NCBI GenBank assembly: GCA_973895155.1
Contig: OZ316892.1
Coordinates: 27,924,307-27,988,306, forward strand
Reading direction: 5' to 3'
DNA length: 64,000 bases
From: Marsupella aquatica
Taxonomy: Eukaryota > Plantae > Marchantiophyta
The stretch's first letter is position 1. Each line of letters starts with the position of its first letter. The notes beneath the pieces are model-generated. The model made no database searches, was not told the DNA's origin, and saw only the letters and a list, made by a program, of their open reading frames with translations. The position numbers and the translations under genes are program-made. This document shows, piece after piece, positions 15,417-47,601 of this stretch.

Positions 15417-15633
15417 CTCGAATCATGATCATTGTGTGAGGGTTTACTCTTGTCTTGGGTTAATCTCGAATCATGATCATAGTGTGAAGGTTAACTCTAC
15501 TCTTGGGTCAAATAGTCTTGGCTTAATCTCGAATCATGATCATCCTGTGAAGGTTAACTCTACTCTTGGGTCAAAGAAGGTCTTAACGGGTTAAGCTCGA
15601 ATCATGATCATTGGTTAATTCTACTCTTGGGTC
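15417..15633. repeat. Degenerate ~46-bp minisatellite (TCTCGAATCATGATCAT..GTGAAGGTTAACTCTACTCTTGGGT), left part
   Basis: About four copies; the same unit resumes in the same orientation at 17816-18065. Confidence 0.8.
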
Positions 15634-15634
15634 A

Positions 15635-17814
15635 AAGAAGGACTTAACAGGACCCCTCTCATCTTCTGGATTTAAGAGGACTGCAAGATGTCATTAGGAC
15701 TTAATAGGACCCCCCTCTCATCTTCTGGATTTAAGAGGACTGCAAGATGTCATTAGGACTTAATAGGACCCCCCTCTCATCTTCTGGATTTAAGAGGACT
15801 GCAAGATGTCATTAGGACTTAATAGGACCCATGTGACTGCACACCCTATCTAGGTTCTTATGGAGTGTTTGTCAGATCATGAGTCATTGTCATACAAGAA
15901 CATCAGGTCACCACAGTTGGGACCAGAGTAAAGGTGATTTAGCTGAGTGATTTAACTAAGGCTCTTGGAGAGGCATTTTCCTGGGAAAATATTTTTTATA
16001 ATAAAAGGTGAGACCGCGAAAACCCCACGGCCAGGGGGAAGCAAACAGCCCCATAGATAAATCAGAACAACTCCCTCAGGGAGGCCAGCGGCAAAAGCAA
16101 AGGCCAGAATCACAATAAAGAAAAGGGGGGACTAAATCTAGTGGCCCAAAATATGAGTGACCCATACATCATGTCAACTTCTAGAGCCCTAGAGCCGGTA
16201 AAGCGAGGTATCCCATTCGACCTCTTCCAATAGCTATCACTCCTAGACCAGCAACGCAGCCACAGAGGTGACTCTGCCAGTACTCCTAGCAAACCACTGT
16301 CGTCGTTCTAAAGCTATAAGATCCCTGGCCTTAGCCAGTCTGATGCACCGCCCACCAATGGGGAGGCACCAGCCCGCAGCCCGCAAGTGAGTCTCGGTTT
16401 CCGATAGGACCAGCCCAAAATCAAATACTCGGATCACCTTTTTCTCAAAAATCTGCTCATTTCGTCCCATCCATAGAGCCCACAGCATTTGATAATGCAG
16501 GAAAAGGCAGGCAGATTGGGTGTGTGTTCTGGAATCAGTAGCAACAAGGAGTTCCAGGCTACCCCAACCCTTGCCAAACAGTTCTCTCAAGGAGCTGGAC
16601 TCTTGGAGAGGCATTTTAGGCAAGCATGAACAGCAAGCGGCAGGCCAGGTCAGTTTCAAACAGTACCATGCATGAACAGCAAATGTTGGGGAAAGGAGCA
16701 AGGAAAGGGAGTTTTAGTCAACAATGCACAGAGATGAAAGGATCGAAGCTAAACATGTGGTGATATGTAATGTAGATTGACACAGGTCTTGGAAGACCAT
16801 CGTCTTCAACTAGTTTCTAAAGCTCCACTGAGCTGGAGTCTCAAAAGCGAACTTCCTCTCAACAAAAGCATTTGTAGGTGCCAATGACATCTTAATTTTG
16901 GCTCACTCATTCAGTCTCAAATCAAATATCAGCTAACACTTTTGGGGCATTAGACAAATGTTCATGAATTGAAGATGATCGCACATACGGTTTATTATGT
17001 TGACCTCAAATTTGACCTATTCTGTGAATCGTCCGTTATCGCGGACCAGCGGAGGGAAAGCTACATCGATTTTCTTCTTGATTAATTCTGACCAATGACT
17101 CAAGGCACCACAGAAATACAAAGGCAACACCCTGCTGCAAGTAATTTTTGGCGATTCGCGTTCAACGGCAAAGCTTGATCGCCTGCCGTCGCGCAAGGAC
17201 AGCACTTCCCGGCCCATTAACTCAAAATTTTCCACACTTCTAAGTGGGCAATCTAATATCAATAGAGGTAGGCAATCAGCTTTGGCTGTTCTGGATTTTC
17301 TGAATAGAGAAAGTGCCCTTCAACAGAGAGAGTGCCCTTCAATCCGTAAACAAAAATCACGATTTCATAAGTAGCTGGTATCTTGGAGGTCGCCAACACT
17401 TGAGTCACCCAGCACAATCCAATGATTGAAGTGTAGCGTCCACGATCCAACAATGTCCACGATCCAGCAAAGACCACATAGGTTCATGCATTGTTTTCCT
17501 CCTTCAATAGACTGGAGATATTGATTGTCAAGGTTTCTCATTCAAAACAATAAGCTATTGCCTCTCCCGCATTGAACTTTGGGCTATCCCAGCTATCCCA
17601 GCCCTGTTCAAGACTCCCCTAAACTCTTTGCTAAAATCTTTGCTAAAACATATTATGCCTACCAACTGTGAAACGCGCACTCAACAATCAACTGTGCACT
17701 CCAACAAGTTCCTAGCCACGGTGGGCAGTCACAGGGATCCTATTAAGTGTTGATGCCATCTTGCAGTCCTGTTAAGTCCAGAACATGCCAGAGGGTTCCT
17801 GTTAAGTCCTTCTT
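15635..17814. mobile_element. 2.2-kb segment bounded by imperfect ~95-bp inverted repeats (putative non-autonomous DNA transposon or foldback)
   Basis: Left AAGAAGGACTTAACAGGA..GGACTGCAAGATG..TTAATAGGA..TGTGACTGC (59-bp core triplicated, 15651-15830) is the reverse complement of 17721-17814. No transposase or TSD seen. Confidence 0.5.
15980..16599 (-). mobile_element. 5'-truncated L1-like LINE with 18-bp TSD
   Basis: CTCTTGGAGAGGCATTTT at 15962-15979 and 16600-16617; minus-strand peptide LWALWMGRNEQIF matches the W..W..RN..IF motif near the C-terminus of plant L1 ORF2; AT-rich 3' end. Confidence 0.75.
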
Positions 17815-17815
17815 C

Positions 17816-18065
17816 AGTCTTGGGTTAATCTTGTGTTATTAGAGGGTTAACTCTAGTCTTGGTTTAATCTTGAATCATGATCATCGGGTGAAGGTTAACT
17901 CTAGTCTTGGGTTAATCTTGTGTTATTAGAGGGTTAACTCTAGTCTTGGGTTAATCTCGAGTCATAATCATCATGTGAAGGTTAACTCTACTCTTGGGTT
18001 AATCTTGTGCTATTAGGCTAATTGCTATTAGTGTTAAGGTTAATTCTAGTCTTGGGTTAATTTAG
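17816..18065. repeat. Right part of the same minisatellite as 15417-15633
   Basis: Repeated GGTTAACTCTAGTCTTGGGTTAATCT units. Confidence 0.8.
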
Positions 18066-18207
18066 TGTTACTTAGTCTAAATCACCATTAAGGTGTAACT
18101 AATGACTATTAGCCACGACTTTTGCACCTAGCATATAAAGGAGCTAGGGAGAGCTCTTCTTGGAAACTCATCCTCATTCTTGAGTGAACTAGATAGGTGT
18201 AGGAGGA

Positions 18208-18921
18208 TGTCGTGACATATAGTATCGTAGCCATAGTGTATCGAAAACATACAAGTCACCGGCAAGGCATATGTGCAAGCTGCTAGCAACCAACATGCAT
18301 AGAAAAAGTCCAATCACATTCACAAGTGCCAAGAAAAAGCAAATGAAGTGGTATGTACGTAGTGGAGGTGTAAACCTCTGTATATATAAAAGGCGTAAGA
18401 GAAACAATTGTACTGAAATCGAATCGAAAACCGGCAGGATGCCAAGATCGGTCGGGAGCATCTAACAAATCACTGTGTGAATCCCGTGTACGGAACCGAC
18501 GAGCACTGTCTGAGCTCTGTCAACAACGATTCAAGAAGAACTGAAAACCCACAAAGAAAGACATGCCCTAAGCAAGCAAAGTCCTGGCGTCACACTAACA
18601 AGCACATTTGCTTCAAGAATGGCCCAGACTTGCTACAAGAACATGTCGCTAACTCAGGTAGTACACTAGCCCTAACTACATACCTAGCGGGCAGGCAAGG
18701 GACATGCCGATGTGCATAAGAGGCACTGACCCTCGGCATGACAGCTGTCGTGACATATAGTATTGTAGCCATAGTGTATCGAAAACATACAAGTCACTGG
18801 CAAGGCATATGTGCAAGCTGCTAGCAACCAACATGCATAGAAAAAGTCCAATCACATTCACAAGTGCCAAGAAAAAGCAAATGAAGTGGTATGTACGTAG
18901 TGGAGGTGTAAACCTCTGTAT
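18208..18921 (-). repeat. Element A 3' terminal block b1-GC-a2-b2
   Basis: 18208-18383 matches 18746-18921 (176 bp, 2 differences seen); 18388-18743 matches 37221-37576 (356 bp, about 7 differences). Confidence 0.95.
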
Positions 18922-18928
18922 CCCCCCC
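18922..18928 (-). promoter_or_regulatory. G-tract (polypurine tract) of element A
   Basis: G7 on the sense strand immediately before b1, about 30 bp after the pol stop; element B has the same arrangement. Confidence 0.7.
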
Positions 18929-18960
18929 AGACCACAGCCAAAAGGAGGGCTGAAGAAAAT

Positions 18961-21900
18961 TCAGGTAGCACGTGGAGCACAGGAAGGGCAAAACCATAAC
19001 CCTTCTGGCACCTGGGTAAGTTCAGGCCGAAGGCAGAAAAGATGGTACCCTCCATTGCAATTGTCACACAGCAGCATCTGGTCAGCATCATCAATTCGCA
19101 AACACACTTTGCAAGGGTAGTCCACAGGTGGAATCCAAGTAGAAGTCACAATGGTGGGATCCAGGTTAGGCAGATGACAAGGGGCGCAATTCTTGGCATT
19201 GTCAGCAATTGTGCGCCCATCTGCCCCTTGTAACTCTAGCACTCCAGACGGTCGAATAGCTTTAACCCTGAGAATAGTACGACTAGTAGAGGTGTCCAGG
19301 GTGTTGTTAGCTTGCCGTTGCAAGTACACAAAATCTCCCACTTTAATCTTCCTGACCTTGGGCTGAAAAGTGCCCCCTCGTGTGTGTGCATAACGCAGTG
19401 TGTCCCTGTGCTGTGCAATGGCCAAATTCTCCATGGCCATGGGCATAACCCTCCCGAATAGGGCAGCCCTCTCAGAGATCACATCAGACCAAGTCACAGC
19501 TGAATCCAAGTCTACCACCTGAAGCATGTGAGCAGCAATAGCAGAAGGTGGAACTGGGTGACGACCAAACAACAAGAAGTAGGGAGAAAAGTTAGACAGT
19601 GATGCATGTCTGGACATCCTATACCCCATGGCAATGTAGGGTAAGGCCAGGTCCCAATCCTCCTTGTTTTTGGTGAGGCAAATCTTCCGGAGACCCTTCT
19701 TGCATGTCTGAACCATGCGCTCTGCCAAGCCATCTGCTTGTGGGTGATCTCGAGATGTCCGGCAATGATCAATGAGGGCCTGATCAAGCAGCTCCTGGAA
19801 CTCTCCTCTAAACTCTGAGCCCTGGTCAGTGAGACATTCTGCACAAGCTCCAAAGCGACTGAGAACTTGTTACAAGAATGCCTGGTTGGTGCTACGGGAG
19901 GTCTTATCCGGCAATGCCACAAGTTTTATCCACTTGGAGAAATGCTCTATCATGATCATGATGTAGAGATTACCCTAAGACGTGAGGGGTAATTCTCCAG
20001 CCAAATCACATGACCAGCGATAAAACATGCCCTGAATAGGGAGTGGATGAAGTGTGGGTTGCCGATATGTGAAAGAAGTCCTCACCCTATCACACTGTTC
20101 ACACCTGGCAATAACATCTCGAACCTGGCCATGCATGCCTCTCCAATGATAATGAGGGACCAAGAGGCTGTAAGTCCTCTTAACACCAAAATGACCAAGC
20201 TCAGAATGTACCTTACGGATAAGGCCAACCCTCTCATGAATGGGTGGAACCACCACTTCCCTGTCTGGCAAGCAGCGCACGAGATGATCTCCCTTCCACA
20301 AGTAGCGCTTGGACCTTTGCTGAATTCGGTCTCTCTGGGCAGCAGTAACATGTGTGGGGTACTCCCCATGCTGCAGAAATCTCAGAGTGTCACTGTCCTC
20401 CCATATGTCCACCACAGGTTGGTCAACAACGTAGCATGGCAGCAAAGCAAGATAGGTAGATGCATGAAATGTAGGCAGGATGGAAACCTGGTCAAAATCC
20501 TGCCGTGCATCTGAGGAATCATTAGAGGCAATCAAAGGGCTGCGGGACATAGTGTCAGCATTTTGATGTGTTACACCAGGCCTATGAATTACCTCAAAAT
20601 CATACTCCTGGAGTATGAGCGCCCAACGAGCAAACTTTCCAGTAAGCTTGTCGTTGGTCATCAACCACTTCAAGGGTTGGTGGTCGGTGTAGAGAACAAA
20701 CCTGGTCCCATAGAGGTAGGGCTTGTAATGTATGACAGCCCACACAACAGCAAGGCATTCACCCTCATAAGAAGAATAATGACTCTCTGCCTGATTGTTG
20801 CTCCTGGATGCATAGGCAATGATGTACTCTTTACCTTCCTCATCATGCTGGCCCAGAATGGCACCAATCCCAAGGGCACTCCAATCTATGTGTAACACAA
20901 AGACCTTGCTGAAATCAGGTCTTCTCAGCACCGGGTATTCTGAGAGCTTCTCCTTCAAAGTGGCAAATGCTGCCTCAGCATCTGTACTCCATGTCCAAGT
21001 CACATTCTTTTTCAACAAAGCATACAATGGGTGTGCAATGGTACTGAAATCTTTGATGTAGATCCGATAGTAATTGCACAACCCAATAAAACTCCTGAAA
21101 GTGTGAACATCGATAGGAGTGGGCATTTCCAAGATGGATACCACCTTGGCCCAGTGAGCCATGGTTCCATTTGGAAGAATGCGATGCTCAAGATATACTA
21201 CTGATCTGACAGCAAATTCACACTTCTTGGGGTGTATCTTTAGGTTCACCTTCTTAAGCCTCATGAATAGCTCCTCAAGGTCAAGTAGATGTTGGTCAAA
21301 CCCTTTGCTGTGCACCAACACATCATCAATGTAGCATTTCAGAAACTCAGCACCTTGAAGAACCTGGTCCATGACTCTTTGAAAGAATATGGGCGCATTC
21401 TTCAAGCCAAATGGCATCACCAACCACTCCCATAGTTGGTTACTACCATGGAAAGCTATTTTCTTGCGGTCCTTTGCAAGCAGCAAAATCTGGTTAAAGC
21501 CTTGCCTTAGATCCACAAGAGTGAAGATGTCTGAGTCTCCAATGCTGTCAAATAGCTCCTCTGGCCGTGGCATGGGGTACCTGTCCTGGGGTGTGACCAT
21601 GTTTAGTGGCCTGTAGTCCCCACACATGCGCTTCTCTGTCCACAATCCACTGGAATCCTTCTTTGCTGGCATCACTGTAGCTGCTGCAAAATCTGATGTA
21701 GATGGCTGAATAAGACCAGCTTCATATAACTCTTGGCACCTCTCATCCACCAGCTGCCACTCATGCTTACTCAAACGGTGTCTCCGCCTGAAGATAGGTG
21801 TTTCATCAGCCAACTCAATGGAGAACTGCATAGTCTTGCACTTACCCAAGTCCTTCATAGAGAAAGCAAACATATTCTCATGCTTGAGGAGCAAATTCAG

Positions 21901-24312
21901 CAGCTGGTCCTTCTGTCTTTTACTCAGGTGGTTGCCCATGATGAATGTGTAGTTGGCAACACTAGGAATAGGACCTGATGTACTCGTACTTGAAGAGCCA
22001 AAAGTGCTAGCCTCTCCACTGTCCAAGCTGCTGATAAGGTGATGAGGCCTCTCCAAGGCCTGTTGTACCTGCTGATCTGGGTTGGTCCACACCATGAAAC
22101 TCAGAAATAATATCAGCCACATTACAAGGGACCTCCTCCCCCCAACACTTGGACTGAAGCGGTGAGTGTTGAATAGAGGTAAGTGCACCTGGTCGGGATG
22201 CCATGTAGCAGCACCATGGAGTGGTAGAGCTGGAACTCCAGATGCTGGATGAATGTACATCTGAAAAAGTGACCAGAAGCCAAGTGAGAGCATTAAGATC
22301 CATTACCCTACCAAGTAAAGCATTCCTGGCCAGCCTGGTGATCTGGGTGTGACTTGTAGTACCGGATTGGAAGCCCATAGCCCGTTCTCTCTCCTCAGGA
22401 CTAGGTTCATCCCAAGTACCGGTAGAATGTCGATAAACCAGGCCAGGACCATCACCCTGAAAGGCATGTGCACCTGGAAAGGATACAAATGTAGGCCAAG
22501 CAGCACGGGGTTGTCCAATGGTATTGGTTGGATACCAAGGTGCTGGCTCTTGCCGTGTAACTGGTTGGCAAGAACTGTCAGGATCCAAAATCTGGTCCAC
22601 TGTGAGGTTAGTGTCCCTGGATGTGTGGTGAAGAGCTAACTCCAGCAAGGAAGGTGGTGCAATTCAAGGTTAGTCCAAAAGTTACGAAGACGATGTGCAT
22701 AAGAATCACAGTGCACTGCATCAATGAGAAGGGGTGGTCCCAAGTAGTGCTGGACCACACTGAAATCCTCTTTGACCTGTGGACGCTGGTCAAATTGAGA
22801 TGGAGTATTCTCAATGATATAACCAACAGCAGGATAAAGGGACTGAGCCCAGATGAGAATCTGAACCAATGCTGTGAAAAGGCCAGAACGAGAATCATGC
22901 AGTCCAGCACCGTGACCAGTAGCTGAAAACCCTTGGCATTCCCAACCAACTATGATCAAATCAAGGGAGCCAAGAAGGGTTAAGTGCCGGTGCTGGACAA
23001 GTTGGATATCTGGAGGAAAGAAAGAAAATGCAGACTTCCATGCACTGTGTGGAAACTGCTGGGGAAATCGCTCTGAAAATTCCAGTAGACGGGATTCAGC
23101 CACTTGCCTTGCACCTAGATCAATATCCACATAGATGTACTGCTTCACCACCATGCTAGACTGTAGGAGAGCTTCCAGGCCTGTAAAAATGCCACCAAAA
23201 AGCTCAAGCAATGTAAGGCCATCTGAAGGAGGAGTCCATGTAACTGGTGCGCTCAAGATTGGGGCTATTGGTTGGCCATTGTGCTGCCCAAGATCCTCAA
23301 ATTTGCGCAATGCAGCCACCAAAGGTCCATGGGCTGCTTGGAGCCGTTGTACCACCTCTGGTTGATGATCCACGTTGCTAGAAAGTGCTGCTATACGTGC
23401 AGCAGCATGTGCAGTAGCCACCTCATCATCATCCTCCTCAATCCAATCCTGCAATGGGTGGTTGACATAGGTAGCTGTGTGCACTGCTTTCAACACACAG
23501 TGGTGAGCCATAGGTGTATGGGCACCATGCAAATCAAGTGGAATGTAGCCCAAGTGTGAGCCATCCGTATGCCAATCAACTCTGTAGTATGCATGCTCAT
23601 GCCAGTTGTCAATGGTAAAACCTGGTGGGAACAAAGCCTCCTGGCCAATGAGCACATCATACGTAGTGGCATTGGTAACTAAACATCTGACTGGGAAATG
23701 CAATTCCTGATCTGTACCTCCATTAAAAGTGAGAGTGAGTAAAGTAGAACTCTCACCTAGCACATCCTCCACAGTGCCACTAGCAGTCTGAATGTGCCAC
23801 TTGGATTGCTGTAAATGATCAGTCAACAGTCCCATCTTCTTGGCAAACTGAATGCCCAATATCACTGGTTGAGCACTTGTGTCTAGCATGACCACCTGAG
23901 GAGTGTGACCCTCCAACTTGACCACTGAATTCTTGTTGTCAACAATGGCAATGGTGGTGGAAACTGAAGTCCTGTCACTAGGCACCACTCTCGGCAAATG
24001 ATGAGGTACCTTGTGAAGGGAGTTAGTGTCCATGGTCTTTCCACTCAACAACATAGCTAGGAAAGATGGAGCAGCATGACCAGAATCAAGTGTAGCTCTG
24101 GTCACACAATCAGCAGCAATCGGTACTGGGGCAGCCAAACCAGTGGAAACATGTAAAGGAGAAGAAGAAGGTCCAGTATGTACATGAGATTGGACCTCCA
24201 AAACCGGTGTCACAGGGGCTGATGAAGAATGCAGTGAACCCTCTAGCGCTCCGAGGACAGCTCTAGCATCCAGCTGTAAATCATGGCAACTGAAAAGTGG
24301 AGTTGTAAGAAT
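18961..24312 (-). pseudogene. Element A pol: protease, C5 DNA methyltransferase, RT, RNase H, integrase, PHD (frameshifts and stops)
   Basis: MLDTSA; LELFGGI, GWECQG, IENT, HRLRNFWTNL, ERERAMGF, RNALLGR; RMCGDYR, MPFGLKNAP, YIDD; HSELGH..CEQC, WSCD, AERMV; C4HC3 PHD CKVC..CDNC..H..C..WFCPSC. Confidence 0.92.
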
Positions 24313-24641
24313 TGTCACACCATTCTGAGTAGTGTAGTAGTATATCGTGCTATTAGAGTATGTACGTTTGGTATGAGTGCTATTGGAGCCGATAAGGTTC
24401 TGTCAGGTTTGTGTGAGAGGGTACTTCTCACTTGTGAGGCATTGAAAGGTCATCTTTCAATGTTGAGCCTTGGAGAGAGAGGAGCTTGAGTGTGGCTATG
24501 GTGGCTGTGAGCTCCGCTTGTGTAACGTGGATTCCTTGAGTAGTGCAAGGTGCGTTGGCTTGACATACGTGTGTGATCGGATCGGTGCGGGATCGATGGG
24601 GTATTGTTGACCGGGATCGTTGTACCGATTGTATGGAGATT

Positions 24642-24656
24642 ACATTGAAAGATCAC
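24642..24656 (+). promoter_or_regulatory. Self-priming primer-binding site of element B
   Basis: ACATTGAAAGAT(CAC) directly after a1 is complementary to (GTC)ATCTTTCAATGT at 24449-24463 inside a1 (12 bp perfect, 14/15 overall). No TGG-type tRNA PBS. Confidence 0.7.
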
Positions 24657-25177
24657 ATTCGAAATCTGTTGTACGGACTGTGCGGACAGAAGTTTGATTG
24701 ATTGAGTTGTCGACGGTTCGTGGTAGCTCGGATCGTGTGTTGTTATCGAACAGATCGTTGGTATCTTGACCTGTATCGTTGTTGTCCGATCGGCCTGCTT
24801 CCCGATCGATGTACAGATCTGTGATTGGTGACAGGTTTTGAGTTGGAGGTCGATTGATGATTCGTGGAGGAAAGCGAATGTTGAATAGATGTTGGACAGT
24901 GGAAGTCGATCTGTGAGGCTTCAGATCCGATTGCCGGCTATTGTTGGACGATGTTGGCAAGGCGCAGGTGAAGCGACGGCTCTTTTCCTGAAGGAACGGA
25001 GCTGCCAATGCCCCGTGTGACGGTATCATCGTTTCAGTGAAAGAAACGAGGGTCAAAGGTGTTGAATCAAGCTGCTGCCAATTCTGTGGAAGGGCTGCAT
25101 TTTTCATGAAGGAAATCGACAATTTTCGGGAGCTTTTCATGAAGGAAGTAGTCGTTTTTGGGGTCAGGTGTGAGGCG

Positions 25178-25402
25178 CACGAGGTCACCCATCCTGAAAG
25201 TGCTCGCGCGAGGCAACGCGTGAGGTCACCCATCCCGAAAGTGCTCCCAACCGCGAGCGCGAAGTTATCCATCGCGAGCGCAGGCAGGCGCAAGGTCGAG
25301 GTCACCCATCCCGGGGCTATTCCGGGCCGTGAGCGCGAGGGGAGGCACAAGGTCGAGCGCGAGGAGGTCACCCATCCCGGGGCTATTCCCAGCCGCGAGC
25401 GC
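25178..25402 (+). repeat. Four copies of GAGGTCACCCATCC plus flanks in the element B leader
   Basis: Copies at about 25181, 25222, 25298 and 25364. Confidence 0.8.
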
Positions 25403-25948
25403 TTAACTGACAAGTTCTCATCCCACCTTGTGTACACACAAGCTTTGACAACTTGTTGTTTAGATTCAAGCGCCAGGGGGCTTTATACACTTCCCGGTTT
25501 GTTTAGAGGCCTATTCTAGGCCAAATTAGAGACTATTTTGCGGTTTTTGATACTTCTGAGTCCATCTAGACTCACAGATTGAACCAATTTTGCCTTGGTT
25601 CTCATCTACAACATTGGAGTGCCATTGTGAAGCCTATTATGAAGGCTCTTCCTTGAACCTTATGCACATTGTCATACTGATTTGCATTTGCTTTTGTGTG
25701 GAGAGTTGAATGGTATCCATTCTTGTTTCTGGATCCTCTTCACACATGTTTCCTGTTTATGCGCCATGTTAGTTTCGTGTGGGCGCTTGATTCCATAGGA
25801 GTGATCCGGGTTTGCAACTGGACATTCTAGTGTGCTGTGTATTTCTCTCTTGGTGATGTTGGAGTGATGCCCAACACACCATGGTGAGTGCTTGTGGTGC
25901 TGACAGGGATAGATTGCCCTTAGGGTTAGCACATAGATTAGGTTAGGG

Positions 25949-28900
25949 TTGGTCACCACGGATTCTTCTGGTGCTGTTGGATTACCCGATGGACGACGGA
26001 CCGGTTTCACTTGGAGTGGGGCACAGTTTCGGCCAACGGCATTGGTAGCAGTCAGTAGTGCAGCTTTAGACAGTGATTCTGATGAGGACTCAGTGACCAG
26101 TTCTCCTCATCATCAGGTGGTTGCACCTTTGTTGTGGGATATGGATGAGATGTATGGGGCTACAAAGGGCCCACGACGATACTCTGGTGCAGTTGGCATA
26201 ATTGATCTGGATGACTTCATCCAGGAGTTTGATACATGGTGCGATATGCAGACATTGCGTAACGTCACGTTGTTTACCCCTTTCATGGTATGGAAGGGAT
26301 TATTCCAACATTTGGAGGGGCCACCCATGGATGACTACCATGAGTTTTGGAAGGCTCATTTGGTTGAGATTGAGGCATGGAGGCAGCATTGGTCACCTAA
26401 TTACGTGTCCATCACCTATGGCACTAGTGCGGCTGCCCAACCCATTGCCACAGCTGCTGCTTCTTCTAGCAGCACTAGCCAGAGTGGCACACCATCCACC
26501 AGCAGCACTCCAGCAGCATCCACCACTACTCCTGTCGGTGTGATTGTGACAGGAACTGGAGTTGCGCCAGCATTTAATCCTGTGGTGGAATTCTTTGAGG
26601 TACTGAAGCAGAACTATCAGGGTGTGAGAACTGATAAGTTGAAGGGTCTTCAGGAGTTCCAATGCAAGACTGGAGAGAGCCTACGTGAGGCATACACACG
26701 TATGCACAGATTGATCACTGTCACCAAGGGAGTGATAGAGGCTCAGGCAGTTCAGTTTTGGTATGCAATTCTGGACAGAGAATTGCGACGCAGAGTGAGA
26801 GATGTCACTCTGCTTAGGGATGCAGATCCCACATTAGCAGTTGTTTTCACCCTTTTTGAGCACATTGAGCTCAATATGGTGAATGAGAAGGTGGTGACTT
26901 CTGGATTTGCCAAGGAAGCACCAAAGGCTGCATCTACATCCACACCACAGCCTACTGCACGGAAGAGCCAGAGGGAGAAGCCTACTGCACGAGAGTCTAC
27001 CAGCCAGAGACCTGTGCCCTCTTATGCTGGACAGTAGTCAGGATGTTGGACCTGTGGTGGGGATCATGCACAGAGATATTGTGCACGGGATCATAGAGGA
27101 TCAGGGGGAGCATCAGCGCCTGATCAGCGACAGTGTGATCACTGTGGAGCTCCTGGACACACCAAGGATAGGTGTTTCTCACTCCACCCTGAGTTACGGA
27201 GAGGAGGATCCCGTACACATGATCAGGGAAGAGGAGGAGGAGGTAGAGGTGGTGGACGTGGTCGTGGCATGCCACATGCAAGGAGATAGGGAGGTGACGT
27301 TGCCCCTGCTGTAACCATAGATCCAAAGGATGCTAAGATTGCTCAATTGGAGCAACAACTAGCTGCCATGGCTAGTTCCCAGGTGAGACCTAATTTTGGT
27401 AATGGGGCATCTACATCCTATGGACCTTCCACATCCCATGGTCCTTCCACATTTTATGGAGCTGATGGAGACCTTGCCACTATGGGATTCATGTGTGGCA
27501 CTGCACATATTGATGCATCAGCAGCTTTGACACGTGGGGCAGCCAAAGCTCTTGAGCCCCGAGGAGCAGTAGTGGAGTTAGATCCACAGAGGGGGGATGC
27601 ACATCGGCAGACAAAGCTTCCTCAGTCTTTTACATTGTCAGAGACAGTTCAGACTACCTTTATGAACCCGGTTTGGACAAACCCTGATATGGGTAAGTTG
27701 GCAGAATCAGGTAGTGATGCAGCAGGGATGACAAGTACCTTGCTGGGGGCGGCTACTGCCATAGTACGCACCCCATTATTTTCAGCGACGGACATGCTGA
27801 ACTTGGGAGTTGGTCCTACAGAAGTGTTCAGATTGGCAACTACACTCTTTGAGGACACCCCAGTGGTTGTTTCCCATGCAGAAGCAACTTGCAGTGTTGA
27901 TGCAGTGAAGACCATGCCACCTACTGCTACTAGTGAGACATGGCATGCAGCAGCAGCGAGGTTGGTGGATTTACCAGCACACCCTGCATTTGAGAGGACT
28001 AGGTTTAAACCTAGTGTTGTGTCATTGGATAATCGGAGTGGTATCTTCCGATTAGTTGGGCCTTCTGGAGCAGTATACCAGCCAAAGAGAGTGTTACTGG
28101 ATACTGGTGCTCAGCCCTTGATGTTGGGGAAGTCTGCCATACGTGGATTGGGATTGCGTCTAGAGGATTTGGAGGATTGTCCCTTTCCCATTCAGACTTC
28201 ATTGGGGGGACCTACACCTACACAGCATATCACCAGGAGACCACTTGATTTGAGGATTCAGGAAGGTCATACCACAGATAGCTCACAGATACAGGCGCGA
28301 GCTATTCTGACTAAGGCAGAGTCATATGATGTGTTGGTGGGATGTACAGTGCTCTACCCCATGGGATTTATTCTTGATTTTTGGGAGGAATCAGTGTCAT
28401 ATAGACCTGATTGGCAGTCAGGAGATGCTCGATTGAGCAAATTGCCAGTGAGATTTAGTGGACCTGTGGGAGGCCCTAAATCCACACCATTGTCTTTGGC
28501 AGCATTCAGTGGTGTAATTGCTGGACCTGATGATTTGATTGAGGGTAATGCGCATGTAGCCGATGTTCCACCATTGGAGGAGTCTCATGAGGAGCACATC
28601 ATGCGAGGATTACCTGTTGGCAGTGTTGTGCCACCAGTGTGGGGCACTGCACAGGCCTTGCCACAGGCAGCAGCACGATTGGTACATGATGCATGGCGTC
28701 ATGCTTTTACACCACAGTTAGGAGCAGAGCAGTCTCTTGCAGATGGACCTGTGACTCTTTCACCATTGGATACCACTCCTATTGCTTGGCAGTATCCACC
28801 GGAGGGTATTTGTTTGTTGGATCTTTTTGGTGGGATTAGCACTGGATTGGCTGCTGTTCTTTAGGCATGAATTCCTGTGCGTTGTTATTTGTATGTGAAG

Positions 28901-31900
28901 ACAGATGAGACAACACGGAGGGTCTTATTGTGACATGTGGCTATGTTGGTGGATAGATATCCACAGTTGCTGCCAGTGGATGCTGTTCGTGGTTATCAGC
29001 ATGCACTACCTGCTGATATTTTATTGTTGGGGGCGGATCATCTACATCGTGTTGGCCCCATTGATTTGGTGATTGCTGGTTGGCCATGTCAAGGCCAATC
29101 TAGAGTTGGCATTGGGCATGGACTTCATGATCCACGCTCTGCATTGTTTTGGGAGATGTTACGGGTGTTGCGTCATCTCCAGCTACATCAGACACAGTCT
29201 CCAGCATACATTTTGGAGAATGTGCCATTGTTAGGTGATGATCGTAGTCGGATTGTTGCCAGTGTTCACCAGGTGAGGTCTTGGATTGGACCTGCTGTGT
29301 TATTGGATGCTGCACGTGTGGGTTCTCGTGCACATCGTCCACGCTTATGGTGGACTAATTTGATTCCATGTGAGGTGCTGAAGCGCGCATTTGACAGCAT
29401 TCCATGCTCACCAGCCTTAGTGGTGGATGATATTTTGGATCCAGGGCGTCGTGCACAGGGTGTGACCCAACCTGATAGACCTCCATTGGCAATGGTCAAT
29501 GCAGTTGGGTGCCCACGTTGTGCATTACCCACTCTTGTAAGCCACTCTACTTCATATGCATTCAGAGCAGGTGGCCCTGGACTTGTATGGGACACAGCTC
29601 TCCAGCAGTTAGTGGAGCCTACTGCTTGATGAGAGAGAGCGTGCTATGGGATTTTTGACTGGCACCACTGCAGTTGCCTCTATGTCAGAGTGTTTGCGGC
29701 GCCAGGTTCTTGGTCAAGCAATGGATTTGAATTGTTTGACTTGGATTATCAGCTTGGGAGTAGCTGAACAGTTGCGGATGCGCTCTGCCGGAATTACTGA
29801 TTTCCCTTGGTGAGCTTGCGGTCCACTGAGACAGTATTGACCACAGCTGGGGGCAAGCAGACAGTCCATGGACCTATGACAGGATTGGCGGTTGCACAGA
29901 TTGTTGAGCAGGAAGGGACTGCTCAATCTACTGCTAAATAGCAATCATCGGCTATCTCTTCTACCTTACAAAGAGATATTAGGGATTTGGTGGAGAGTTG
30001 GGAACCACAGCTTGGCCCTAAGTTAACAGGGGAGGAGAGACGTCGCATGCATTGATTCCTGAAGAGTTATTGGAATTGTTTTGCATTCAGCATGAAGGAT
30101 TTGGGGACATTGAAGGGCCCTCGTATTCAGATTGAATTGGCTAGTGATGCGCCAATCTTTCGTAGACCATACCGTTATAGTGACATGGAGAGAGCTCTGA
30201 TTCAAAGCAGAACTCAAGATTTGTTGGAGGCTGGATTGGTGGAGATTTCATATGGGGAGTATGCATCTACCACAGTGATGCCAGCCAAGAAGGATGTGCA
30301 TGGCAATTACACAGATAGGCGCATGTGTGGTGATTACAGACCTATTAATCGCCAGACAAAATCTGATCGATATGCCATGCCCACACTTGAGGAGATCTTT
30401 GATGCTATGGGACATGCAAAGGTTTTCAGTTCATTGGATCTGAGGGCAGGATACCATCAGCTTCCAATTAGGCATGCTGACAGGTCCAAGACAGCATTCT
30501 GGGGGATTGATTCTTATGGCAAAGATCATTTGTATCAATGGTTATTCTTACCATTTGGGTTGAAGAATGCACCAGTTGAGTTCCAGAGAGTCATGGATCG
30601 AATCCTTGCAGGTTTGGATTTTGTCAGATGTTATATTGATGATATTTTGGTCTATTCTTCTACTGTGGAAGAACATCAGCAGCACTTGCAGACTGTGTTG
30701 GAGAGATTGAGAGCACATGGGTTGAAGCTCCATCCTAGCAAGTGTAAGTTCTTCCAAGACCAGATTGAGTATTTGGGCCACACCATATACCCAGGGGGAT
30801 TGGGTGTACAGCAGACTAAAGTGGAGGCCATTACACAGATTCCTTGTCCTACTGATGTGAGTAGAGTTCGTGCATTCTTGGGATTGGTGAGCTACTACAG
30901 GAGGTATGTTAAAGGATTTAGCTAGCTTGCTAAACCTTTGACCATACTCACTAAGTTGGATCAGGAATGGATTTGGGGTGATGACCAGGAGCATGCCTTT
31001 CAGGAGTTGAAGCAAAGGTTGGCATCATCCCTTATTTTGAGAAGACCCATTTCAGGCAGACCATTTCAGCTACACACTGATTGGAGTGGAGTAGGACTTG
31101 GAGTAGTGCTGACTCAGAAGGATGATGAGGGGAATGAGTTTGTTGTGGCTTATGCCAGTAGATCAAACAATTCAGCAGAGGCTAAGTATAGCTCTTATGA
31201 GGGAGAGTGTTTGGCAGCAGTGTGGGCTATTGCACACTTTCGTTGCTACTTGTTTGGTAACCCCTTCACCTTGATCACTGATCATCACCCTCTTAAGTGG
31301 TTAATGGAGTCTAACAAGCTTACAGGGAAGCTTGCACGATGGGCATTGTTGTTACAGGAGTATGATTTCCAGGTGGTGCATAGGCCTGGAAAAGTGAACT
31401 TGGATGCAGATGGATTAAGCCGCAATCCATGTACCAGTCAGCAGGATGAGACTGGAGCCAGATGGCATGATGAGTCAGATAAGGAGATGGTGTCAGGATG
31501 GCATGCATCTGCCTTTCTTTGTTGGGTGCCAGCATACAGTGGATCTGTGGACTCTACCTCATTGGATGGAGTGGATGATGAGTCTTCAGATGTGGATGTT
31601 GGTGAGGTAACTTTTGGACAACAAGATATTCACAATGATGTGAGAGTGTTGGAATATCTGCGCAATAGTTCTATTGTTGGCAGTGTTGATGCCAAGGAAC
31701 GTGACAGGGTTCTACAGAGAGCCAAGAGGTTTCGATGGGAGGGAAACCATCTTTTGAGAGTACTGCATGATGGTAGGATGTTGGTGGTACCAAAACCATC
31801 ACAACGAGTACATTTGGTGCGACATGCGCACGAGGAGTTGGGTCACTTTGGTGTGAAACGCACTTACAGCTTGCTGCAGACACAGTATTGGTGGCGTGGT

Positions 31901-33064
31901 ATGCACACTCATGTCCAGCAGTTGATAGCTAAGTGTGTGGTATGTGATAGAGTGAGAGCATCATTTAATGCTCCCACTCCCCAGTTGCACCCGTTACCGA
32001 TCATGGGTTTGGGATATCGTTGGAGTTTGGATTTTGCTGGTCCATTACCTCTTACCCAACGCCATAATTGGTATGTTTTGGTCATGGTGGAACACTTCTC
32101 CAAGTGGATTGAGCTAGTGGCGTTGCCAGATAAAGCCAGTGGATGAGTTGCTGCTACATTTTTGGATCGTGTACTAAGTCATTTTGGAGCACCAGAGGTG
32201 TTGACTGATCAGGGAACTGAGTTCCGTGGAGAGTTTGAGAGTTTGTGTGAACAAGCTCTGATTGATCATTGTACTACCTCTCGTGATCATCTTGAGGCAG
32301 ATGGATTAGCTGAGAGAGTTGTGCAAACTGTGAAGAGAGGATTGCGTAAGTATGGCTTGCAGGTTGGTCATCTGGGAGATTGGGATCTCCAGCTACCTTG
32401 GTTAGCTATGGGCTACCGTTTCAGTCGGCAAGCATCACTTGCATCCTTCTCACCCTACTTTTTGCTCTATGGTAGAGAGCCAGATTTGCCAGCAGCTATT
32501 CATCGTCATGCTGCACCAGTTGTGAACTTGGATGATCCTGATGTTTGGGTCAAGGTGTGTTCAGAGAGAGCACGGGTATTTCAGAGACTGATGCCCATGG
32601 CTTTTGACAACCTTGCCATTGCCCAACATCGTGATACTTTGAGGTATGCCACTATTCGTGGAGGAGGTTACCGTGCAAGCATTCAACGATTTCATCCTGG
32701 TGATTATGTTTATTTGCAGCAGACAGCACCCACGACACTTGATGTGACCGCAAGCCGGACAATCTTACGTGTGCGTGAAGTGTTGCCTTCTGGTGTCCTG
32801 ATGTTGGAGGGACGCGATGGTATGGTTTGGAAGGATCATGTGTGCAACTGTGCACCATGTCACCTTCCCAACATTGATGGTACAGTAGATCCAAGCTTGG
32901 CACATGTTCGTGCTGGCTTGAAATGTATGTTGTGTGGATCTGCTCAGGGAGCAGCTACTATGTTGATTTGTGATAAGTGTTCTAGAGGATGGCACATGTC
33001 ATGTTTGACACCACCATTGCAGGTGATTCCTAGTGGATCATGGTTGTGTCCTCAGTGTCGGTGA
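25949..33064 (+). pseudogene. Element B gag-pol: Gag with two zinc knuckles, protease, C5 DNA methyltransferase (about 28802-29760), RT, RNase H, integrase, PHD; several premature stops
   Basis: CWTCGGDHAQRYC and CDHCGAPGHTKDRC; LLDTGA; LDLFGGI, GWPCQG, ILENV, HRPRLWWTNL, RAMGF, RRQVLGQAM; YIDD; HEELGH..CVVC, WSLD, LTDQG, AERVV; PHD CMLC..CDKC..H..C..WLCPQC. Confidence 0.93.
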
Positions 33065-33228
33065 AGTCGACTAGTTATCATTTGTGTTCTCTTGGCAGAT
33101 ATGGATTGCAGGTAGGTGATCGATGGGGCTCACTTGCACCCGGCCTCCTGATCTTCACACCTAAAAAGGTGTATATCAACCTTGTAGAACTCATGGCTAG
33201 CTAGAGTTAGGGGACCTTACTCCCAGCT

Positions 33229-33235
33229 AGGGGGG
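33229..33235 (+). promoter_or_regulatory. G-tract (polypurine tract) of element B
   Basis: AGGGGGG ends 2 nt before the start of b1 (33238). Confidence 0.7.
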
Positions 33236-33237
33236 CG

Positions 33238-33844
33238 ATTGTGGGTTTTGGACATGTGTGGACATGAGTTCCACTTGTATTCCATTCTCTTGTATTTGTG
33301 ATGTGGCAGTGTGACTATGTCTGGATGTATGTGACAAGCGATGTATGTTGTGTAGCGATATGTATGCGCACGACAGCTGTCACACCATTCTGAGTAGTGT
33401 AGTAGTATATCATGCTATTAGAGTATGAACGTTTGGTATGAGTGCTATTGGAGCCGATAAGGTTCTGTCAGGTTTGTGTGAGAGGGTACTTCTCACTTGT
33501 GAGGCATTGAAAGGTCATCTTTCAATGTTGAGCCTTGGAGAGAGAGGAGCTTGAGTGTGGCTATGGTGGCTGTGAGCTCCGCTTGTGTAACGTGGATTCC
33601 TTGAGTAGTGCAAGGTGCGTTGGCTTGACATACGTGTGTGATTGGATCGGTGCGGGATCGATGGGGTATTGTTGACCGGGATCGTTGTGCCGATCTTATG
33701 GAGATTATTGTGGGTTTTGGACATGTGTGGACATGAGTTCCACTTGTATTCTATTCTCTTGTATTTGTGATGTGGCAGTGTGACTATGTCTGGATGTATG
33801 TGACAAGCGATGTATGTTGTGTAGCGATATGTATGCGCACGACA
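33238..33844 (+). repeat. Element B 3' terminal block b1-GC-a2-b2
   Basis: 33238-33375 matches 33707-33844 (138 bp, 1 difference seen); 33378-33706 matches 24313-24641 (about 6 differences). Confidence 0.95.
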
Positions 33845-35637
33845 GAATCCTTTGTGCCATACCGGAGGTGACATGCTCAAGCAGCTCAGGAGAAACAACT
33901 CCCTGTGAAATGTCAGCAGCACCTGGTGGTGGAATGGATGTAGCTGCAGCTCCCTCCCCCCTCGCCAACAAGGTGCGCTCTTCAGCAAGTGTGAGTGGCT
34001 GAAAAGATTGGGGCAAGACAGCCCGAGCTCCCCTGGCTCTAGTCATAGGACCGGCAGCAAGACCATCAGCCTGTACAATGTGGCGTGTGGGAGCAATACG
34101 AGAGGCAACACTGGCTTGCTGGTAAGCAAAATAGGAAGGGCAAAATGAATCTGAAAATTCTGCTGTAAGGCCAGGCTGTGGAGCAGAGGACAGCACACAC
34201 TCACCCATATGAGCATCAAATGGCAAGCCATAGAAACAGCGGGGTAGAGGTGTTGAACGGTCAATGGTGCCTGGGCCAGGGATGGGTTGCACGTGACCAG
34301 CCGGTTGAGAAGGACCAGCAGAGGCAGTTGACTTGCCTTTGATGTTGGCAAGTTGGGCACGTAGGGACTCAACCTCATGAGTCAGAGACTGGAGTTGAGT
34401 TGCCTGTGCATTGTGAGCCTTCTTCTGAGCTGGTGGCTTCTGTTGCTGCTTGGGCAATTTGTTGGCACTGGTTGCTTTGCCACTAGAAGGAGGAGCAACT
34501 GATGCAGTAGGAGCCCTCCTAGCTGGTGGGGGAGTGGAAACAGGAGCAGGATGAGTGGCCTGTTGTCGTAGCTGCTTCCTCTCTGGGAATTTGGCAAAAC
34601 AAACTGCCTCCAAGTGGCCCACTTTCCTGCAAAAATCACAAGACAGGTCCTCAGCAACAATATCACATTCATTAGCCTTGTGATTATGATTGCCATAGTA
34701 GTTGCAAGATGGCAGCATGAAAGCAACATGTGCTGGTTTGGTCTTGGAAGCATACTGTGGCACACGGGAAGGGGTGGCCATTGTAGGAGCAGCAGCCTGG
34801 TACCTGGATCGCGGTGGATGCGCAATAATGGCCTCATAATGTCCATGGGCCAACTCAAGTTTCTCAGCAGTGTCGTAGACATTGAGCAATGTGTAGCTGT
34901 CTCCAAACTCTGAGAATACTTGCTGCAACACTTGTGAATGGAGAGCTGGTGTGCCCTCCAATGCGCGAAGATAGCGATGAGCAGCTTCCAGGTCAGTGAT
35001 GCTCTGGGTGTCCTCCTTCAGCTTAAGAAGCCGGCGATACATCATCTTCAAGGTTTCATCGCGCTGCCTCACAAAGGTCGCCAACTGCATGATTTTGTCA
35101 GCACTCTTGATTGGGAATTCCAATTCAAGAACCTGGAAAAACTCAGCCACTAGATCAGCAAAGGCAGGGGAATCAATGGTGGGAGAAATGCCTGATGTAG
35201 CCTGTGCCAAGATAGTGGGAGTAACTGGCGCAGTGGTAGGAACTGGAGTAGGAGGAGAAGTGGCAGGAGCAGCAGCATGGGCTGCAATGGCATTATGTAA
35301 TGCCAATTGTGAGGCAGCCGCAATTGCACTGGCATAGGCAGGGTTAGGCAATTGTGTGACAGCAAGCAGCCGTTGAGAGTGCTGCTCATACACATCCAAA
35401 GCAGAAGGGGTAAATGGCAATGAAGGGATAGCAGGCTGTGGAGTAGTGGTGAAGCGACCGCCAAATTGAGCAGAAGGATTGCGTGGTGTGGGTGCTGCTG
35501 CTGTTTGCGGACGTCGTCGAAATTGCCGAGACTCCAATGAAATTGGCACCAGGCACCAATGGGCGTGGATCACTCCGTAAATGGTACCTAGGTGTCGGTG
35601 GCGATGTGCTGCTACCTCCTGGCTCGTCGGTTGACAT
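33845..35637 (-). pseudogene. Element A gag region, split from pol by the insertion of B
   Basis: Zinc knuckles CNYYGNHNHKANEC and CDFCRKVGHLEAVC. Removing B and one TSD rejoins ..MAQRIL+TTPLFS in frame (B has AIVRTPLFS). Probable ATG at 35637 with an early frameshift. Confidence 0.85.
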
Positions 35638-37205
35638 GCTGCATGCTCACCTGGGTGCCAATGGGAAAGAAACTGACAAGAAAAAGAAATGGCAGCCCCA
35701 AGGCTAGGAAGTAAACGGTGTGAGCAAAAATGTGTCGAATGTGTAAACACACAGAAAAACCGTCGGCAAAGAAAAGACCCTTAAAAACTCCAATTGTACT
35801 GGTGTTGTGCTTGCTGGATTGATTGTCTGATGAATATGCCGGGCCCTCAGCTTTATGCAGATGACATGTGGCGGTAGCAAAGAAATCCAGAAAAATGGGC
35901 CCTTAAAAACATAAACCTGGGCCCCCCTTAAGTGTATACCTCGGCCTTTTCAGATGTATAAACATGGGGCCCGGTTAAGTGTATACATCGGGCCCCGATG
36001 TGGACCCGGGAACTGGCAGCAAGGGTGTGCGTCGGCAGGAAATGAAAACTGGGCCAAGTGGGGATACGGTATCGGGGCACGGTGCCCTATGCAGGTCGTT
36101 GATGGCAAGGCGAGAAAGAAATGGAAGAAACGACTCAAAAGGGAGGCAAGGGGAAAGAAAAATGGGCCTCAATTGCTCGAGCCCTGCATAGGGCTTCGTG
36201 CCATACGCCCTCCTTATGAGCTCCCAAACTCCCCTCTTTATAAATGCTCTGTAATTTGGGCCTCGTGCCTGGCAGGACTCCCGAGAAGGGAGTCGTATGT
36301 ACTCCCCTTCCCCTTCTTTAATGCAAATAGGGCCTTGTGCCCTCTTCTAGTCTTCTGGCACACTCGCTCCCCCTCCTCTCTTGCTTTAATGCTTCCTAGG
36401 GCCTCGTGCCCTCTCCTGGCACTCGCTCCCCCTCTCCTTATAAGCTCCCAAAGGGAAGGGAGCTACGAACTCCCCCCTCCTCTCCTTGAATGCCTGAATG
36501 TACTCGCCCCCCTCTTAATGCTGCATAGGGCTTTGGGCCCTCTCCTTGCGCTCCTGCCTTGGCCTGGGGCAAAAATCTACTCCCGAGTGAGGGAGTTCGA
36601 ATGGGACTTCCCTCCCCTGCTTTAATGCTGCCGAGGATGCTGGCAATGGCAGGAAACAAATGAAGGAATGGGCGAGGGAGGAAGAAAAATGCCGAAGGGA
36701 GGGCGCGCGGCCCTATGCGCGACCCAAGGGCAATGATGAGCCCCGCTTGTGTATACACAAGCAAGACCGGGAGGCACCTCGCAACGGTAGCTACGAGGGG
36801 AGGCAAAATGAAACAACGGCCGGTGAGGGAAAAGAAAGAACGGGACCCCAAAGGGTCGTGAAAATGTAAAGCAAAGGGAAGGTGGTCGCGCTGCGACCGG
36901 AAAACACCGAAAGTTGCCCGAAAAAGGTCGTGGTAGTCAGCAGCCGGCAGCCGGCAGCCATAGTCGGAAGCAGCAAAGGGTCCTCGGATGCAACCGGAAA
37001 GAAAAAATCGGGCTCCAACAGGAGCGTTATGTGTATACTTATGTTAAGTATACACTTAACACCATATTGAACCCATAATTTCAACCCGTACCTCCATTGT
37101 TGCTCAAAGAAATTGCACCGGCTTCGACGGAAATTTTCTGGACCGACATAGCAGCTGAGAAGCACAACGTCGTTGATCTTCTTCCCTTCACTGCTAACCC
37201 GGCGG

Positions 37206-37220
37206 CAGTTCTTCTTGAAT
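37206..37220 (-). promoter_or_regulatory. Self-priming primer-binding site of element A
   Basis: CAGTTCTTCTTGAAT (37206-37220) is the exact 15-bp reverse complement of ATTCAAGAAGAACTG (37362-37376) inside a1, and it abuts the inner edge of a1. Confidence 0.75.
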
Positions 37221-37576
37221 AAAAGGCGTAAGAGAAACAATTGTACTGAAATCGAATCGAAAACCGGCAGGATGCCAAGATCGGCCGGGAGCATCTAACG
37301 AATCACTATGTGAATCCCGTGTACGGAACCGACGAGCACTGTCTGAGCTCTGTCAACAACGATTCAAGAAGAACTGAAAACCCACAAAGAAAGACATGCC
37401 CTAAGCAAGCAAAGTCCTGGCGTCACACTAACAAGCACATTTGCTTCAAGAACGGCCCAGACTTGCTACAAGAACATGTTGCTAACTCAGGTAGTACACT
37501 AGCCCTAACTACATACCTAGCGGGCAGGCGAGGGACATGCCGATGTGCATAAGAGGCACTGTCCCTCGGCATGACA
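37221..37576 (-). repeat. Element A 5' terminal repeat a1
   Basis: Matches 18388-18743; sense strand begins TGTCATG. Confidence 0.95.
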
Positions 37577-37645: not shown

Positions 37646-38112
37646 TGTCACACCATTCTGAGTAGTGTAGTAGTATATCGTGCTATTAGAGTATGTACGT
37701 TTGGTATGAGTGCTATTGGAGCCGATAAGGTTCTGTCAGGTTTGTGTGAGAGGGTACTTCTCACTTGTGAGGCATTGAAAGGTCATCTTTCAATGTTGAG
37801 CCTTGGAGAGAGAGGAGCTTGAGTGTGGCTATGGTGGCTGTGAGCTTCGCTTGTGTAACGTGGATTCCTTGAGTAGTGCAAGGTGCGTTGGCTTGACATA
37901 CGTGTGTGATCGGATCGGTGCGGGATCGATGGGGTATTGTTGACCGGGATCGTTGTGCCAATTGTATTGAGATTATTGTGGGTTTTGGACATGTGTGGAC
38001 ATGAGTTCCACTTGTATTCCATTCTCTTGTGTTTGTGATGTGGCAGTGTGACTATGTTTGGATGTATGTGACAAGCGATGTATGTTGTGTAGCGATATGT
38101 ATGCGCACGACA
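37646..38112 (+). mobile_element. Solo a-b unit (467 bp) of the element B family
   Basis: Same length as and nearly identical to 33378-33844; TG..CA ends; flanks GTCC and ACCC do not form a perfect TSD. Confidence 0.92.
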
Positions 38113-45690: not shown

Positions 45691-46339
45691 TACACTGTCC
45701 ATCTCTCCCACTCTTTATGTTACTTCTCCAAAGTTTTTGGATCTAAGCTAATAATTTGCAATGGAAAGCTATACTTTGCAGCCTATTGTCTGCCTGGCGG
45801 TGATTGCAGATAAAAAAAGCAGCAATATACAATACAGTGTACAATGTGGCAAGTGCACACAGGGTGAATGGATTATCTATACCACAATTAGTCTGATTGT
45901 AAACTTATATCATTTAGTGTCTATTGTCCAGAGTGAAACCTCGAGACAAGTGAAACCTCTAGACGGTGACTCGGGTGCAGGAAAGTTTTGGGGTGAGGCA
46001 ACAGATCTAAAATCTGCCACCTTACAATGCTTAAAATTGCCGCAATGCCAATTCAAACAGAGGCAAAACAGATTTCAGGTTCATTTCAAGTGGGATATAG
46101 TAGCCAGAAAAAGAGAGACAGCTTCAAGCTCTAAGTTGGAGGGGAAATTATTCCAAAATGCTTTTGAAATAAAGATCTCTTAGGCCTTAATTAATATGCC
46201 TAAAGGCCTAAGAGATTTGTATTATTACTAATTTTAGTAAAATAGAGGAGAATCTTACTGAAGAGGTGATCCAAATCACTAACTGGCATTCTTCTCCAAC
46301 AACATTGGGAAATACAAGGGAAAAATCACAAAGATCATC

Positions 46340-47415: not shown

Positions 47416-47601
47416 TCATGAGTCAAACTCGATGCGAAATCTGCAAAACACTTCGATTTTATTTGACCCTTCTGTCAACTCATCACAGTAGCTGCAATGC
47501 TGCAATGGAGTAATGATTAATCGTCTATCGATTTGCTGTGTTGGGTCCTGTCAGCTACTCCGCTTGCTTGCTGGTCCACCGCACAAATATCGAGAGAGAC
47601 T

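Follow-up and report, generated by a model that had tools for sequence, protein, structure and literature searches.

Two nested retrotransposons, here called A and B, lie in the stretch of Marsupella aquatica DNA analysed (64,000 nucleotides of contig OZ316892.1, referred to as the window), and both combine the proteins of Ty3/Gypsy elements with terminal repeats that are split. Self-comparison of the window revealed that each element reads a-internal-b-GC-a-b, ends in TG..CA and is flanked by 4-bp target-site duplications (TSDs). This feature is real and family-wide. The reading preferred here, held with modest confidence from the sequences, is that integrase would cut a conserved palindrome in the upstream long terminal repeat (LTR) of the new DNA copy, the original ends of that copy being rejoined imprecisely. 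That an internal cut is combined with end joining, a claim pooled with a rival in which the copy is first sealed into a circle and which differs in the order of events only, is considered highly probable.

Element A occupies 18208..37576 on the reverse strand between TCCT repeats at 37580-37577 and 18207-18204, and is interrupted in its gag region by element B, a member of a second family on the forward strand (24313..33844, with GAAT at 24309-24312 and 33845-33848). An earlier note on this DNA, the original prediction, had called for TG..CA ends, clean 4-bp TSDs and the order a1-internal-polypurine tract-b1-GC-a2-b2 in two families with dissimilar repeats, and all of these were recovered, the repeats lying where they had been placed. 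In A, the 358-bp a1 (37219..37576, first bases TGTCA) opens the element, which closes with the 176-bp b1 (18746..18921, last bases CACGACA), a 358-bp a2 (18386..18743) and a 176-bp b2 (18208..18383, right end CA); two extra bases, AT, at the a|b joint (18384..18385) are absent from the end of a1 and from the start of b1. The corresponding repeats of B are 329 bp for a1 (24313..24641) and a2 (33378..33706) and 138 bp for b1 (33238..33375) and b2 (33707..33844, right end CA), with a2 joined to b2 without extra bases. Three of the four predicted sizes therefore stand, and that of a in A is corrected from 356 to 358 bp. The a and b repeats of A have nothing beyond short local likeness to those of B. 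Within each element, the paired repeats have diverged by 0.7-2.0% (a1 against a2, 7/357 compared positions in A and 6/330 in B; b1 against b2, 2/176 and 1/137), giving similar ages from a and from b, and both elements are degraded, with stops and frameshifts in their coding frames. A solo a|b of family B (37646..38112, forward strand, 98-99% identity to B, joint as in B) stands 69 bp outside the left end of A; its flanks, GTCC and ACCC, form no TSD, and it is perhaps a recombinant of two copies. The leader of B holds four GC-rich 41-bp repeats (25181-25404, forward strand).

Relatives were obtained from a metagenome scan, in which the best 80 of 686 confirmed stretches, drawn from 23 of 64 collection parts and from another host than that of the window, were read as short-read contigs and are denoted by locus number. 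Thirty-two of these loci were dropped for an unreadable 3' end, and the 48 readable ones represent 43 distinct 3' ends; where a single locus had been assembled more than once, the versions were merged (L008/9/10, L027/28, L035/37, L045/47 and L069/71), L041 was excluded as rearranged, the TSD count does not include L051, whose upstream a is a 73-bp piece, and the joint count does not include L017, whose contig ends in a2. Further relatives, L081-L086, are Gypsy contigs of eukaryote type filed in bacterial assemblies and are probably mis-binned algal DNA. L082 contains a complete b-GC-a|b end, whereas L081 and L083 provide polypurine tract, b and palindrome; b2 is not in the L083 contig, L084 and L085 end too early, and L087 belongs to another family. 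Two long open frames with one stop between them were read in L081; its 9.16-kb loop with one b-GC-a was rejected as evidence of a circle, since repeat collapse gives the same picture, and it is probably a collapsed loop. Among viral contigs, protein search returned no relatives, and the 42 matches to a 15-base palindrome pattern, none accompanied by a reverse transcriptase (RT), were taken as chance.

The central element of the arrangement is the palindrome GACA-GC-TGTC, formed where b1 meets a2 (18740..18749 in A, 33372..33381 in B) and regarded as the putative integrase site. The spacer between b and a is 2 bp long in 20 of 20 distinct relative copies (GC in 7, GT in 5, AC in 4, AT in 3 and AA in 1), and 19 of these spacers are GC or C-to-T decay products of GC. 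A, B, L003, L081 and L082 all have GACAGCTGTC as a perfect palindrome, which extends to 16 bp in L083. This 10-bp palindrome, following a G-run and a short b, recurs in L081 and L082 (Pol identity to the query profile 54%) and in L083 (48%), while the contig of L086 (41%) ends within it. Were GACA-GC-TGTC to be cut after the CA of each strand, CA-3' ends and 2-base GC overhangs would remain, resembling substrates that integrase has processed at the 3' end. According to the available text of PMC1180852, foamy virus integrase cleaves the palindromic LTR-LTR circle junction in vitro in this manner, after CA on both strands.

Twenty of the 43 distinct 3' ends carry b-NN-a, and in the other 23 b runs directly into host DNA (the short form). 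Seventeen copies were readable at both ends, eight being full (a-internal-b-NN-a-b) and nine short (a-internal-b). Two complete identical LTRs around the internal region, the conventional ab-internal-ab arrangement that the original prediction had named as the contrary case, were found in neither window element and in none of the 17 relatives. Perfect 4-bp TSDs flank 12 of the 17 (6 full, 6 short), another 2 have one mismatch and 3 have none, against a chance of 0.0055 per pair. The expectation that TSD-flanked copies would always read a-internal-b-a-b did not survive, a-internal-b copies with perfect TSDs (L012, L034, L035, L036, L065 and L068) being about equally common. A mirror form, a|b-GC-a-internal-b, was not encountered: none of 23 5' ends carries b-NN before a1, and full and mirror copies number 8 and 0 among the two-ended relatives (binomial P = 0.008).

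Short and full forms are intermixed on the tree (13 changes against a shuffled mean of 12.9, for 17 full and 22 short copies), so the short form does not replicate as a lineage of its own; their terminal branch lengths are alike (medians 0.071 for short and 0.052 for full, P = 0.37), so age is silent on its origin. The short form could derive from one-LTR circles, from cutting at both palindromes, from a subsequent deletion between b1 and b2 or from collapse during assembly. Three of the 23 short ends keep GC directly after the terminal CA or TA (L030, L046 and L051), and GC precedes TG at the 5' end of L014, as if the spacer were sometimes retained. Contigs from four public runs of two studies, one of which runs may be the source of the window itself, part from family A precisely at 18208 and 18743, the end of b and the start of a, and from family B where b ends, in each case into unlike flanks; many insertions therefore truly terminate at these points.

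The a|b joint, classed by eye in 19 copies, is exact in 7, carries a substitution in 1 and is changed in length in 11 (+1 in two, -1 in four, -2 in two, -3 in one, most of b gone in L011 and some 290 bp of extra leader in L031). In L031 (11050-11846), a2 continues through the primer site and the leader sequence before b2 begins, like a head-to-tail dimer that has lost most of its second internal region. The boundary between a1 and the primer-binding site, by comparison, shows a length change in 0 of 23 cases (Fisher P = 1.8e-5), and the difference persists when the two large events are removed (9/17, P = 8.9e-5). Over 16 copies, the distance of b2 to its own b1 is 0.096 against 0.131 under shuffled pairing (P = 5e-5), and b2 forms no lineage of its own, the b2-b2 distance (0.141) being no closer than that between b1 and b2 across copies (0.133). 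With a variable joint beside a fixed a1 boundary, and with b2 closer to its own b1 than under shuffled pairing, the joint therefore looks newly made in each cycle, in keeping with de novo end joining.

In established LTR biology, primer site and polypurine tract set the ends of the LTR. The primer-binding site directly follows a1 in both A (37206..37218, reverse strand) and B (24642..24653, forward strand), and the polypurine tract adjoins b1 (G7 at 18922..18928 in A, G-rich at 33230..33237 in B). For this reason the reverse-transcribed LTR should be b-GC-a, as the original prediction had it, and the complementary DNA (cDNA) should be a linear b-GC-a-internal-b-GC-a whose ends are not TG/CA. 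The bases directly after a1 are complementary to a stretch within a over 15 nt in A, counting the final 2 nt of a, and over 12 nt in B, with predicted self-primers at 37376-37362 and 24452-24463, respectively. Such pairing spans 12-16 nt with at most one mismatch in 12 of 12 relatives examined and is an exact 13 nt in L081, while the self-primer sequence itself differs from family to family. Self-priming is described for Tf1/Sushi and Tcn1 in the accessible part of PMC6317226, and A and B would appear to self-prime as Tf1 does, with the RNA starting 140-200 bp into a.

The coding content is that of a Gypsy element with two additions. In A, the gag part of ORF1 upstream of the B insertion (33849..35780, reverse strand) has no Pfam match but a CCHC-like motif read directly, and the frame continues at 22277..24312 with an aspartic protease and a C5-methyltransferase, with a frameshift near 22665; ORF2 (18961..21954) encodes RT, RNase H, an H2C2-DDE integrase with in-frame stops and a PHD finger. 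The forward-strand frames of B are organized alike, ORF1 (25937..29783; gag, protease and C5-methyltransferase) being interrupted by stops and one frameshift, and ORF2 (29957..33064; RT, RNase H, H2C2-DDE integrase and PHD) by in-frame stops. RT, RNase H, the H2C2 zinc finger and PHD were matched by Pfam in both elements; the integrase core (rve) gave a weak match in B, and the D, D and E residues were read directly in both. The methyltransferase domain sits between protease and RT in A and B and matches PF00145 at E values of 1.2e-4 (A), 1.2e-10 (B) and 6.8e-12 (L081); its PCQ motif is intact in B and L081 and reads ECQ in A. The idea that this methyltransferase marks one of the palindromes was dropped for want of support. 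The second D and the E of the integrase are separated by 34 residues in A, B and L081, one fewer than the usual 35. No member of the tyrosine recombinase family was found in the 12 open reading frames (ORFs) of the elements, in 64 further window ORFs of at least 75 aa or in 18 ORFs of L081, so the earlier claim of an HHCC-DDE integrase without a visible recombinase holds. The C5-methyltransferase of both elements, self-priming in place of tRNA priming and the solo a|b of family B are additions to the original prediction.

The domain order (protease, RT, RNase H, integrase), an RT closest to Ty3, the H2C2 zinc finger with a DDE triad, the TG..CA ends and the 4-bp TSDs are all Ty3/Gypsy traits, and the Pol of L081 finds its best solved relative in Ty3-G (E 6.7e-100); A and B are thus Gypsy elements by protein ancestry and not by LTR structure. 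Among named proteins, those of the liverworts Calypogeia (80-83% over RT-RNase H) and Marchantia come closest, followed by those of Klebsormidium and Closterium, with the K. nitens proteins P0026 and P0050 at 45-50% identity to the RT region of A. A midpoint-rooted RT-RNase H tree of 35 rows, built without reference lineages, groups A, B and the K. nitens proteins (100/99) and places A and B in two separate subclades, both well supported.

Drawing these features together, RNA would start inside a1 and prime itself as in Tf1, and ordinary LTR reverse transcription would then make the linear form b-GC-a-internal-b-GC-a, without TG/CA at its ends. From a staggered cut in GACA-GC-TGTC, placed behind the CA of each strand, two CA-3' ends with GC overhangs would result; integrase would hold both of them, and the free a end and the start of b would be joined before or after strand transfer, giving the insertion product a-internal-b-GC-a|b. 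Of the two palindromes, the upstream one is predicted to be used first, as it would be double-stranded soon after the second strand transfer while the downstream one would await about 9 kb of plus-strand synthesis. Cutting of a one-LTR circle, or of both palindromes, would produce the non-replicating short a-internal-b.

Several observations sit uneasily with this reading. TSDs are missing from three of the 17 two-ended copies and from the solo a|b of the window, and, the relatives all being short-read contigs, b1 and b2 may have been collapsed into one in some short forms. Although b2 tends towards its own b1, that b1 is its nearest in just 6 of 16 copies, and a 15-bp unit is missing from b1 and present in b2 in five copies, with one reverse case, a discordance that single-template copying does not predict. 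The unit concerned is the last 15-bp tandem unit beside the palindrome (absent from b1 in L004, L032, L048, L060 and L064; the reverse in L069/L071). In family A, moreover, the exact joint and the +AT joint of the window are both common, the shorter form making up 35-61% of summed contig depth, and no indel occurs among the family B joints listed, five rows standing outside that listing; the joint could therefore be partly inherited or precise. Some family B joints omit portions of a, and loose ends occur at 33702; as these may represent divergent subfamilies, they were kept out of the tally of resected joints.

The original prediction had proposed that the linear cDNA is end-joined into a free two-LTR circle and then opened at the upstream site. 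Its b-GC-a LTR and absence of a recombinase are retained, and the conserved palindrome at the b-GC-a junction and the imprecise a|b joint speak for its internal opening and its end joining; the strict order of events is what now seems unlikely, requiring as it does that the upstream palindrome be picked through some signal beyond the LTR, such as the leader repeats. This order would give the same product and the same imprecise joint, the L011 and L031 joints do resemble repair of damaged ends, and retroviral two-LTR circles arise by end joining and have a palindromic junction that integrase can cleave (PMC1180852, as far as its available text goes). In a sealed circle, however, the two palindromes would sit in matching sequence reaching at least one b length to either side, so that the mirror form should arise as well, and none was found; mirror copies might collapse to the short form through a1-a2 recombination, but hardly all of them. 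It is this absence that favours the preferred reading, in which integrase likely commits to the upstream palindrome before any circle is sealed.

Copying in the manner of PAT and Ngaro, with RNA running through a2 into b2, a templated a|b joint and a DDE integrase replacing the tyrosine recombinase at the last step only, is a distinctly doubtful alternative. The A-B-A-B layout is that of those elements (legends to Fig. 1e and 4c of PMC5890265), B and its solo have one exact joint in common, just two forms of the joint are common in family A contigs, and in six copies b1 is at odds with b2. Set against this, the conserved geometry of primer site and polypurine tract is that of ordinary LTR copying, in which b2 is never a template, b2 lacks a lineage of its own, and many joint lengths occur beside an invariant a1 boundary.

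It is very improbable that jumps of RT between the cDNA ends on a 1-2 base overlap, instead of host end joining, make the joint, with integrase still cutting the palindrome. End-clamping by retroelement RTs would favour such jumps, b begins with AT in families A and B and in the metagenome family, a ends with AT in two of these, and both -2 joints lose exactly AT; but the commonest joint retains both ends whole (7 exact and 1 substitution of 19), and b starts differently in L081 and L082. That the layout is an artefact of assembly, or stems from ordinary two-LTR elements rearranged by chance, can hardly be entertained, for although no single contig of the runs spans the window stretch, the layout is common to two dissimilar window families, dozens of copies in another host and L082, perfect TSDs in 12 of 17 copies far exceed chance, conventional copies number 0 of 17, and the layout was noted independently in Klebsormidium (PMC5890265, in the portion available).

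Among known systems, the closest is KnitGypsy-Dnmt3 of Klebsormidium nitens (de Mendoza et al. 2018, PMC5890265), for which the legend to Fig. 4c gives DIRS-arranged repeats with Gypsy domains. Judged by its description, this element resembles A and B in its Gypsy domains, its C5-methyltransferase within the polyprotein and its A-B-A-B repeats, and A and B probably belong to its group; the available account is silent on TSDs, a palindrome, a primer, a short form and a mechanism, and its main text does not mention PHD. The statement of the original prediction that no description was known was accordingly too strong, the DIRS-like repeats having been noted in 2018 without a mechanism in the text at hand. 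A 2026 preprint (bioRxiv 10.64898/2026.05.21.726589) mentions "Gypsy-DNMT3", with no repeat structure in the part accessible. The repeat layout has thus been noted once already, and the literature search, which did not extend to subscription journals, Repbase Reports and theses, found no account of the internal palindrome or of the integration route.

PAT and Ngaro, of the DIRS order, have the same A-internal-B-A-B layout with integration at the B|A junction, but use a tyrosine recombinase where A and B have an H2C2-DDE integrase, protease, polypurine tract and 4-bp TSDs. In the bacterial IS3, IS30 and IS21 circle junctions, a DDE enzyme acts on abutted ends with a short fixed spacer, as proposed here; these are DNA transposons whose transposase makes the junction, unlike A and B. 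The Tf1/Sushi group and the plant Tcn1 chromoviruses have in common with A and B the Gypsy domain order, predicted self-priming and a chromatin reader at the integrase C-terminus, and differ in having two whole LTRs and a chromodomain in place of split repeats, a PHD finger and a methyltransferase (PMC6317226, accessible part). At retroviral two-LTR circle junctions, cleavage of a palindrome by integrase behind the CA of each strand yields processed ends (foamy virus, PMC1180852; reportedly also HIV-1, PMC1905944), which is reminiscent of the present proposal; there, the palindrome arises only upon ligation of the cDNA ends and the provirus has two whole LTRs, whereas in A and B it is encoded within the LTR and copied through RNA, the ligated joint lying elsewhere. 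Troyka is unrelated on the available text of PMC12440569.

Elsewhere in the window, a UPF2 gene (MIF4G and Upf2 domains; 51179-54967, reverse strand) forms one unbroken, apparently intronless frame of 1262 aa, land-plant UPF2 genes usually having many introns, and a PPR protein is encoded by an unbroken 676-aa frame (40715-42745, reverse strand). Tandem arrays occupy 15412-15830 (59-bp units), 17797-18074 (87), 46289-47416 (75-90) and 55381-55824 (54-56), one of them 130 bp from the right end of A.

Taken together, A, B and their relatives probably represent an old green algal and bryophyte clade in which the ends made by RT have been uncoupled from those used by integrase, a ready-made circle junction being carried within the LTR, with insertion proceeding solely by palindrome cleavage and end joining required in each cycle. 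LTR finders would be expected to pair a1 with a2 and lose b2, or to miss the short form wholly, in bryophyte and algal genomes, and copy numbers, ages and lineage maps of this clade are therefore probably wrong. If the proposal is true, it would add a second integration route for an LTR element, unlike textbook insertion, would tie Gypsy elements mechanistically to the DIRS elements with split repeats, and would make it testable whether integrase cleavage of an abutted-end palindrome is a normal route or a side reaction. The circle-junction route was long proposed, and then set aside, for retroviruses; these elements would provide a natural case in which it is obligatory.

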